A stretch of DNA of 25,312 bases from a virus (Duplodnaviria > Heunggongvirae > Uroviricota > Caudoviricetes): the IMG/VR virus record IMGVR_UViG_648276668_000012. One strand, given 5' to 3'. Numbering within the stretch: the first letter of the stretch is position 1; every line of letters starts with the position of its first letter. Shown here in pieces: positions 1,135 to 2,553 of the stretch. The notes beneath the pieces were generated by a model. That model was not told the origin of the DNA. It did not search any database and was given only the letters and a program-made list of their open reading frames with translations. Position numbers and translations under genes: made by a program.

Positions 1135-1506
1135 TCATAAGTACCGATATGATTGCGGGGCCGTTATGTTATCACCTAATGAACTTAGATGAAGTGGTTG
1201 GTCATAGATTTTTAGATTACCAATTTCTATAGCAAAGGCCTTTTCTTTGCTATGAAAATATGAGTCAAAAAATTGTTTACTGATACCCGCGTATTGGCTT
1301 GTTTTTTCCCATACAATACTCGGCTTGCCTTCTATAACATCTGCAATGTCAAATTCAGCAACAACTTTACCGACAGGCATTGTTGAATAAATAACCACAG
1401 ATTTTACATCCGGGTTTTTGAAAATACCTTTCCTGAATTCAAACTTCTTTGTTCCATTAAGAATTTTTTCAACAAATTCAGGTTTTATTGACAATAACAC
1501 TTTCAT
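1135..1506 (-). CDS. ASCH (ASC-1 homology, PUA-like fold) domain protein, 123 aa
   Basis: The N-terminus MKVLLSIKPEFVEKILNGTKKFEFRK, followed by VVIYSTMPVGKVVAEFDI and AFAIEIGNLKIYDQPL, matches the ASCH pattern as I remember it. The start overlaps the upstream gene by 29 nt. Very AT-rich. Confidence 0.7.
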   Translation of the reverse strand: MKVLLSIKPEFVEKILNGTKKFEFRKGIFKNPDVKSVVIYSTMPVGKVVAEFDIADVIEGKPSIVWEKTSQYAGISKQFFDSYFHSKEKAFAIEIGNLKIYDQPLHLSSLGDNITAPQSYRYL

Positions 1507-1882
1507 CTACAGCACCAAGTTTAATTATATCGTCAAATTGCTTATCGGTTAATTTAACAACACCCCAACGGTTTTTAGGATTCAAACCAATTTCTTCGAT
1601 TAGTTTAGCACGATTTATTCTTTTAGGTAAAGCTAGATTATATGTAAAACTAATAATGTAAGGGTATCTTTTTGTTTGATAGAATTTTTTTAATTCATTT
1701 TCAGAAAACACACTGTATCGTGCACAATACTGTATGAATTCATTTTCACTATGAAAAGAATCAATATATCTAATATCTTCAACTACACATAATGACGTTG
1801 CGACAGAACGATAGTATGCTCTGTTCTCTTCGTCACTTGTTCTGTAAACAACTAATATGTCATGTTTTTTATTTTTGTTACA
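1478..1882 (-). CDS. C-terminal segment (-1 frame) of the middle cargo protein; PUA/ASCH-like by pattern
   Basis: The frame is open for 134 codons from 1882. The first 57 codons (1882-1712) contain no ATG, GTG or TTG, so the track only finds a GTG at 1711. The sequence ...HDILVVYRTSDEENRAYYRSVATSLCVVEDI...YPYIISFTYNLALPKRINRAKL continues naturally from the 2553-1852 ORF. Confidence 0.6.
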   Translation of the reverse strand, partial: CNKNKKHDILVVYRTSDEENRAYYRSVATSLCVVEDIRYIDSFHSENEFIQYCARYSVFSENELKKFYQTKRYPYIISFTYNLALPKRINRAKLIEEIGLNPKNRWGVVKLTDKQFDDIIKLGAVDESVIVNKT

Positions 1883-2553
1883 TCATGCATTCTGCATATG
1901 TATATTTTTCTAATGCTGTTAGCATGAGATACATCCGTTATTATATCTGGAGATTCGGTGACGAGTTTTGAATCCGGAAAAAGTTTAGTATGAAATTTAG
2001 GGTATATTGATAATAGATATTTGCTCTCATTATTTTTATTGTTTATATATGGGTAATCAGAAAGAATATCTCCTGTGAGGTGATCTCTATTCATCTCTCT
2101 TACTAAGACATTTTCTATACCATTTGCGGTTTTTTTTGTGCCATGAAGAATGAATCCATAAAGTTTGAATAGTTTTATTAAATATTCATGTTTTTCAAAT
2201 ACAGTAACATAAATATCATTAACTTTTTCTTTTAAAGCATGGTCAAATATTTTTTTAAAAACGTTGTCCTCGTAATGTTTTTTTGTGTTGAACTTAAAAG
2301 TTCCAATTTTCAAATGCTTATCGTTAACGATTGATGGTGTAACATCTGTTATTGTACCGTGCTCAATTTTTAAATACATAAAACCATCAATGGTATTATC
2401 GTCATTATAAAGTACATATGCTTTTTCTTCTGGATTCAGGCTTTTTTTGTTAAACCATTCAATAAAACCGTGTTTATAGTCATTTTTTAATGAATCAAAG
2501 AATATATCATCAAAATTTACTTGACTGAATGGAATAAGCTTTAAATTTTCCAT
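1852..2553 (-). CDS. N-terminal part (233 aa in the 0 frame) of the middle cargo protein; tentatively a GNAT-like fold
   Basis: SD GGGGG lies 5 nt upstream of the ATG at 2553. The segment KIGTFKFNTKK...IYVTVFEKHEYLIKLFKLYGF resembles a GNAT beta4-alpha3-beta5 core, but I cannot see the Q/RxxGxG/A acetyl-CoA motif. The distal part YLLSIYPKFHTKLFPDS starts a PUA/ASCH-like pattern. Confidence 0.45.
   Translation of the reverse strand: MENLKLIPFSQVNFDDIFFDSLKNDYKHGFIEWFNKKSLNPEEKAYVLYNDDNTIDGFMYLKIEHGTITDVTPSIVNDKHLKIGTFKFNTKKHYEDNVFKKIFDHALKEKVNDIYVTVFEKHEYLIKLFKLYGFILHGTKKTANGIENVLVREMNRDHLTGDILSDYPYINNKNNESKYLLSIYPKFHTKLFPDSKLVTESPDIITDVSHANSIRKIYICRMHDVTKIKNMTY
1864..1870 (-). other. Slippery heptamer A AAA AAC, in X XXY YYZ phase with the 2553-1852 ORF; site of the frame change
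   Basis: The minus strand reads GTA ACA AAA ATA AAA AAC ATG ACA TAT TAG. The -1 frame from the same A-run reads AAA AAA CAT GAC ATA TTA GTT. Confidence 0.5.

Follow-up and report, generated by a model that had tools for sequence, protein, structure and literature searches.

The window analysed here (the whole 25,312-nt stretch of DNA) is identical to scaffold GL884207.1 of assembly GCA_000176615.2, the draft genome of E. coli TA143, a Tasmanian devil isolate; its genome originates from an E. coli initiative of the Broad Institute (PMC4422515). The window covers the left-hand portion of a P2/186-like prophage, in which an integrase gene is followed by an AT-rich block of three cargo genes (Table 1), by CI, Apl-like and CII-like genes, and then by genes for replication, head, lysis and tail functions. 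The cargo occupies a slot between integrase and CI where related prophages hold different genes, and a megablast search of this cargo against the phage database returned no match. The tail-chaperone pair of this prophage type (the P2-like frameshift genes, Phage_TAC_7 and Phage_P2_GpE) is located outside the window (L019 15606–16042).

Table 1. Features of the window and homopolymer changes (orthologous length > length in the window) discussed in the text. Run letters refer to the plus strand unless marked; the fusion gene lies on the minus strand.
Feature	Position	Strand	Remarks
Integrase	1–1056	minus	
Cargo block, three genes	1135–3651	minus	31% GC (window 49% GC)
ASCH-domain protein, PADLOC PDC-M11B	1135–1506	minus	123 aa; Pfam ASCH 2.6e-6
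GNAT-ASCH fusion gene (PDC-M11A)	1478–2553	minus	1076 nt here; 1080 nt/359 aa in other copies
A6 on the coding strand (T6 on plus), "slippery" A AAA AAC	1865–1870	minus	A7 in all orthologues
T8>T7 contraction, fusion gene	2250–2256	gene minus	T8 in all orthologues
A6>A5 contraction, fusion gene	2257–2261	gene minus	A6 in all orthologues
T8>T7 contraction, fusion gene	2278–2284	gene minus	T8 in all orthologues
ORF upstream of the split gene	2581–3651	minus	356 aa listed; 354 aa in orthologue annotation
Intergenic A7>A6	9529–9534	plus	A7 in aligned orthologues and LMLEEc127
Tail-fibre gene H, A5>A6	23979–23984	plus	A5 in all orthologues

The middle cargo gene, as it is written in the window, has the appearance of a 233-aa ORF followed by an open -1 frame, and the description of this arrangement in the first-pass annotation was reproduced in every detail. 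On the minus strand, the ORF extends from an ATG at 2553 to a TAG at 1854–1852, while the -1 frame is open for 134 codons, from 1882 to a TGA at 1480–1478, with no potential start in its first 57 codons (the first in-frame ATG, GTG or TTG is a GTG at 1711). The possibility that the -1 frame is a separate downstream gene was considered and rejected, both for the absence of a start in these 57 codons and because the frame encodes the C-terminal part of a single conserved domain. The two frames meet at a minus-strand ATA AAA AAC (1872–1864), within which the heptamer A AAA AAC (1870–1864) is in phase as X XXY YYZ. A -1 slip at this point would indeed join the upstream frame to HDILVVYRTSD..., yielding a protein of 358 aa that reads ...VTKIKN-HDILVVYRTSDEENRAYY... 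across the junction. The two neighbours of this gene within the cargo differ in their relation to it. The product of the ORF upstream has a hydrophobic C-terminus and no family match, and this ORF is probably not a member of the two-gene module, since a different gene replaces it next to a 76%-identical allele of the split gene. The downstream gene, which encodes an ASCH-domain protein and shares its first 29 nt with the end of the split gene, is intact in the window and has a 100% identical orthologue.

Comparison with other genomes provides a different picture of the same gene. The entire cargo is present in seven complete E. coli genomes at 93.6–99.4% identity, each match comprising 2648 nt vs. 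2644 nt in the window, and in all six of the complete genomes for which annotation was read the middle gene is a single ORF of 1080 nt and 359 aa, annotated as an N-acetyltransferase or as a hypothetical protein. Alignment assigns the four bases missing from the gene in the window to four one-base homopolymer contractions. One of them is located at the break itself, where the orthologues read ATA AAA AAA CAT (IKKH), and the apparent frameshift is a consequence of this A7>A6 contraction. Thus, every orthologue examined combines a seven-A run with an uninterrupted reading frame, an outcome which the first-pass annotation had named as part of what would refute its own headline proposal, production of a short and a long form by -1 slippage.

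The other three contractions are located upstream of the break, so that the 233-aa ORF is itself corrupted. Together they amount to -3 nt, which restores the frame and replaces the segment TLRGQRFL by HYEDNVF. Residues R95, G96 and R98 of this segment do not vary across a family alignment of 42 homologues (identity down to 54%), in which T93, L94 and F99 reach at least 90% conservation; judging by its position, the segment probably corresponds to the motif-A loop that binds AcCoA in GNAT folds. As the 233-aa ORF lacks these invariant residues, no frameshifting event could mend it.

A broader survey of sequence collections yielded the same result. The exact intact 359-aa sequence was found in 208 contigs, and two other 359-aa variants in 176 and 165 contigs, vs. 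a single contig, that of TA143, for the exact 233-aa product. The short cluster members are truncated by contig ends or disrupted elsewhere in the gene, and those spanning the junction all read KIKKHDIL. A pattern scan that allowed either A6 or A7 retrieved three contigs, one from a metagenome and two from IMG/VR, and each of them has A7 and an intact 359-aa ORF. The 76%-identical allele, which most of the 656 matching E. coli genomes carry, is an unbroken ORF of 1071 nt which at the position of the break reads GAATTAATGAAGCCAAAC (ELMKPN; ELMKPND) and has no A-run. The family as a whole comprises 1688 members (E <= 1e-5); at least 115 of the 120 representatives listed are single ORFs of 350–364 aa (query coverage 99–100%), and the listed representatives span Enterobacterales, Vibrio, Aeromonas and Gilliamella. 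Near the junction the family alignment contains a sole invariant residue, D233. An independent frameshift in the same gene family (A3>A4) was observed in genome L004, where the gene is annotated as a pseudogene.

The product of the intact gene is composed of an N-terminal GNAT acetyltransferase domain and a C-terminal ASCH domain. A confident AlphaFold2 model (pLDDT 88, pTM 0.86), computed from the 42-sequence alignment, has two domains: a GNAT fold at the N-terminus, with a conserved motif-A-like segment for AcCoA binding, and at the C-terminus an ASCH (PUA-like beta-barrel) fold. A search of the intact protein against Pfam gave no family, and against NCBIfam gave weak, sub-threshold GNAT matches only. 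By BLASTP, the C-terminal half displays a weak similarity to the neighbouring ASCH protein, confined to an N-terminal motif KxLLSIxPxF (E 0.015), so the assignment of the C-terminal domain to ASCH rests on the fold search. The intact orthologue matches PADLOC PDC-M11A over its full length (E 1e-134), and the adjoining ASCH protein matches PDC-M11B (E 3.9e-49); the arrangement of an A gene with an adjacent B gene is therefore found at this locus once the gene is repaired, whereas in the window as written A is split. WP_096838308.1 and WP_000866322.1 are an example of the intact A and B proteins.

These observations bear directly on the possibility of programmed -1 frameshifting, by which A AAA AAC would direct synthesis of a 233-aa short form along with a long form of ~358 aa. 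The correct X XXY YYZ phase of the heptamer at the frame junction would be expected of such a system, and the open -1 frame does encode the conserved C-terminal part of the protein. This two-frame arrangement is, however, confined to one assembly, against the single ORFs of the orthologues and of the great majority of listed family representatives, and the heptamer is not conserved, as illustrated by the 76%-identical allele. The RNA folded from the 84 nt downstream has a predicted stability of -20.3 kcal/mol (z = -1.27), which is not significant, as 21 of 200 shuffled sequences fold equally well, and its main hairpin begins ~26 nt after the heptamer, against the 5–9 nt expected for a stimulatory structure. 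Moreover, the site does not coincide with a domain boundary: it falls inside the ASCH domain, between a helix (224–228) and a strand (234–239), with the break at residues 231/232, so that a short form of 233 aa would stop partway through this domain. With the GNAT motif upstream scrambled, neither product would be functional as written. Nor is an in-phase heptamer distinctive: X XXY YYZ occurs in phase 13 times in the intact gene (five times as A AAA AAA; 5.7 occurrences expected from codon shuffles), and the A6 run owes its phase to the ATA AAA AAA CAT of the orthologues. Conservation, RNA structure and domain position are thus all against this proposal, and we consider programmed frameshifting at this site to be extremely improbable.

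The same first-pass annotation had offered as a fallback a 1-nt deletion or a sequencing error, and had pointed to an interruption of the tail-fibre gene H in another A6 run as raising the prior for homopolymer error. This fallback is strongly supported. Gene H is indeed broken at its A6 run, where one additional base splits it after codon 27, and this change belongs to a larger set of homopolymer differences that are private to TA143. The most informative comparison is with LMLEEc127 (GCA_016760575.1; JACHOY000000000.1), retrieved through the integrase and gpI proteins of the window, an independent assembly in which a nearly identical prophage occupies the chromosomal site used in TA143. This E. 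coli strain was obtained from pus in Dhaka in 2019 and sequenced on Illumina NextSeq500 at 68x, with assembly by SPAdes (PMC8521144). Over ~39.8 kb of prophage and flank, TA143 and LMLEEc127 differ by three substitutions and seven one-base homopolymer differences; in the prophage part alone (~30 kb), the ratio is seven indels vs. one substitution. All seven indels are in runs of 5–8, four of them in the fusion gene, one intergenic, one in H and one in the gene for the tail sheath FI. The latter, an A7>A6 change ~2.2 kb past the end of the window (compared with LMLEEc127 only), divides the sheath gene into 112 + 278 aa in place of 390. LMLEEc127 has the canonical length at all seven sites, its fusion gene is a single ORF of 1080 nt, and at the six in-window sites it matches the aligned complete-genome orthologues.

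The fraction of runs affected in TA143 relative to LMLEEc127 depends on run length: 1 of 145 runs of five, 1 of 44 of six, 3 of 10 of seven and 2 of 5 of eight (i.e., ~30–40% of runs of 7–8 nt), as compared to none of 167 runs of four affected relative to the complete genomes; the one 9-nt run in the prophage is unchanged in TA143. No such indel was observed in 15 pairwise comparisons between six complete-genome prophages, despite their substitution divergence of several percent. One further candidate for the set of private indels, a C5>C4 change at 17193–17196 that distinguishes TA143 from more distant orthologues, was rejected, since LMLEEc127 carries the same length and the change is therefore a real polymorphism.

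Overall, these comparisons argue that the split is an error of homopolymer length in the TA143 assembly consensus and not a real biological feature, a reading to which we assign a probability of roughly 85%. By this account, the consensus would under-count a seven-A run by one at 1865–1870, and the gene in the organism would most likely be one 359-codon ORF (...VTKIKKHDILVVY...), with no ribosomal frameshifting involved in making the fusion protein. An excess of seven homopolymer indels over three substitutions, combined with three deletions within 35 nt, is the pattern that results from consensus homopolymer miscalling, and it suggests that the TA143 run differences are miscalls rather than mutations. 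The dependence on run length would not by itself discriminate between the two, as long homopolymers are also natural hot spots for real indels.

The principal alternative is that the changes are genuine mutations of TA143, accumulated by a decaying prophage, in a mismatch-repair-deficient episode, or in a heterogeneous culture at slippage-prone tracts. In such a case the four one-base deletions would make the acetyltransferase gene a true pseudogene, and the genes for the tail fibre (H) and the sheath would be truly inactivated. That prophage genes are often inactivated and that homopolymer runs are prone to natural indels agrees with this possibility, as does the occurrence of a real run-length polymorphism (C5>C4) in the same prophage and of the independent frameshift in the L004 member of the gene family. 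A 10-kb chromosomal flank with no homopolymer indel between TA143 and LMLEEc127 could be counted on the same side; nevertheless, this zero is not informative, as the flank contains just four runs of at least 7 nt (P ~0.2 at the observed rate). The observed ratio of indels to substitutions (7:1 in the prophage, 7:3 overall) is far above the natural one: the mutation-accumulation rates of Lee and colleagues (2012) reportedly give a far lower ratio of indels to substitutions, even when mismatch repair is defective. Nor is it plausible that three deletions arose independently within a 35-nt stretch, and none of the seven indels occurs in any other assembly among hundreds. Genuine mutation is, on this balance, unlikely. 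Still less probable is the specific scenario in which real run-length changes, acting through homopolymer slippage, have switched off the PDC-M11 candidate, the tail fibre and the tail sheath of TA143. If the changes were real, they could stem from a period of deficient mismatch repair in the past or from slipped-strand switching of the prophage-borne GNAT-ASCH module between ON and OFF, and slippage on A6 during translation or transcription could then yield small amounts of the full-length product.

Several known systems can be compared with the locus. Consensus errors of the pyrosequencing, Ion Torrent and nanopore type share with the TA143 differences their confinement to mononucleotide runs in one-base steps, a rate that climbs with run length, restriction to one assembly, the splitting of conserved ORFs, and clustering in AT-rich cargo, where long runs occur. 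The attribution in the case of TA143 is based on comparative evidence: literature mentioning the strain gives its host and the Broad Institute and does not state the sequencing platform, and none on the accession was found. TA143 and other Broad E. coli drafts from those years are presumably 454 pyrosequencing assemblies. Established recoding systems, such as dnaX (A AAA AAG), IS elements and the E/E+E' tail chaperone of P2, resemble the locus in having an in-phase X XXY YYZ at a frame overlap; unlike in these systems, the TA143 heptamer is not conserved, no stimulatory structure is apparent, and the junction is intra-domain. Phase-variable contingency genes offer a likeness in the ON/OFF change of frame by A-tract length in an accessory gene. 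They differ in that the tract length here is constant in other strains and contigs, A7 is short for such a tract, and the other six indels do not follow such logic.

The frameshifting candidate is a false positive, and the value of this analysis is, in the first place, its removal. In old drafts like TA143, homopolymer miscalls may be dense enough in AT-rich cargo to mimic recoding signals, and at such a density a broken A-run will automatically show X XXY YYZ in phase, which carries no evidential weight. The gene behind the artefact appears to be an intact and widespread GNAT-ASCH fusion that is uncharacterised and has a second ASCH protein as its partner. This pair resembles PADLOC PDC-M11, a computational defence candidate, in having the A and B matches side by side in a prophage cargo slot, with A disrupted in the window as written; our search of the literature for PDC-M11 yielded a listing in a preprint only and no experimental characterisation. 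ASCH proteins bind or deacetylate N4-acetylcytidine (PMC6972931; bioRxiv 10.64898/2026.02.27.708502), and on this basis the fusion and the free ASCH protein might combine acetyl transfer with recognition on cytidine, acting, speculatively, in RNA or on nucleotides. Because of this link, the PDC-M11A/B pair would be a reasonable experimental target in its own right, apart from the split.

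A homopolymer difference also accounts for the break in tail-fibre gene H of TA143, where A5>A6 at 23979-23984 (plus strand) disrupts the frame after codon 27, and where all orthologues, as well as the near-identical prophage of the independent Illumina assembly LMLEEc127, read through the site as PLKITHMAVGDGG. This break is of the same class as the split of the GNAT-ASCH cargo gene, namely a homopolymer difference private to TA143. A third gene of the TA143 prophage, encoding tail-sheath protein FI, is divided by A7>A6 into 112 and 278 aa, and is unbroken (390 aa) in LMLEEc127. 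Two intergenic run lengths in the window also depart from those of complete-genome orthologues: A7>A6 at 9529-9534, seen in TA143 alone, is probably an artefact, and C5>C4 at 17193-17196 is shared by TA143 and LMLEEc127 and is therefore a real polymorphism.

The intact GNAT-ASCH gene (1922-3001 of L001, an orthologous locus) contains 13 in-phase X XXY YYZ heptamers vs. 5.7 expected from codon shuffling, a count reached by about 1% of shuffles; this excess arises because Lys-Lys and Phe-Lys dipeptides, encoded AAA AAA and TTT AAA, are frequent. In a gene this rich in heptamers, any homopolymer miscall would mimic a slippery site. TA143 is not the only assembly with an occasional frame break in this A/T-rich gene: in E. 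coli MFDS1006657 (L004 3428-4499) a separate frameshift, A3>A4 near codon 38, affects the 76%-identical allele, which the PGAP annotation lists as a pseudogene with a frameshift.

In the complete genome of E. coli C2 (NZ_CP010117.1; L011 6705-9984), the annotation records frameshifts in two prophage genes, those for the dam methylase and the replication endonuclease. This locus differs from other orthologues at 35-43 indel positions, among which the filter used found no isolated homopolymer changes.

A 692-N scaffold gap lies beyond the window in the TA143 tail-fibre / tail-fibre-assembly / invertase region (L019 12018-12709). The counterpart region in LMLEEc127 holds two Caudo_TAP genes in opposite orientation that adjoin a resolvase-family gene, an arrangement suggestive of a tail-fibre segment that can invert and that could not be resolved in the TA143 draft assembly.

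Coordinates of cargo genes, the GNAT-ASCH module and the tail-sheath break
Feature	Window	Other locus	Strand	Location or remark
Intact module, GNAT-ASCH fusion + stand-alone ASCH protein	1135-2553	L001 1579-3001	-	candidate PADLOC PDC-M11A/B
Cargo protein, 354/356 aa, hydrophobic C-terminal segment	2581-3651		-	int-CI slot
141-aa protein, hydrophobic signal-peptide-like N-terminus	10214-10639		-	DinI-portal slot
181-aa protein with hydrophobic segments	11088-11633		+	DinI-portal slot
314-aa ORF (called as 307 aa), hydrophobic C-terminal segments	20483-21427		-	between genes S and V
FI break	equivalent to ~27474	L019 14160-14200 (TA143 scaffold)		about 2.2 kb past window end

The slot between the integrase and CI genes (int-CI) behaves as a variable cargo hot spot, since the gene at 2581-3651, whose product has no match in Pfam, NCBIfam or PADLOC, is replaced by a different gene at loci with the 76% allele, and other related prophages carry wholly different cargo there (a SNIPE/T5orf172 protein, or a DUF4747 protein with a 201-aa protein). 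The DinI-portal genes and the ORF between S and V mark further variable cargo slots of the prophage; orthologous prophages hold, in the DinI-portal slot, SEFIR, DUF4145 with an RNA-binding protein, GTP pyrophosphokinase or DUF6236.

The candidate PDC-M11A/B module itself is widespread (1688 homologues), and the 76%-identical allele occupies the same int-CI slot in about 650 E. coli genomes. Its mechanism would be worth testing, as published work ties ASCH domains to N4-acetylcytidine (PMC6972931; bioRxiv 10.64898/2026.02.27.708502).
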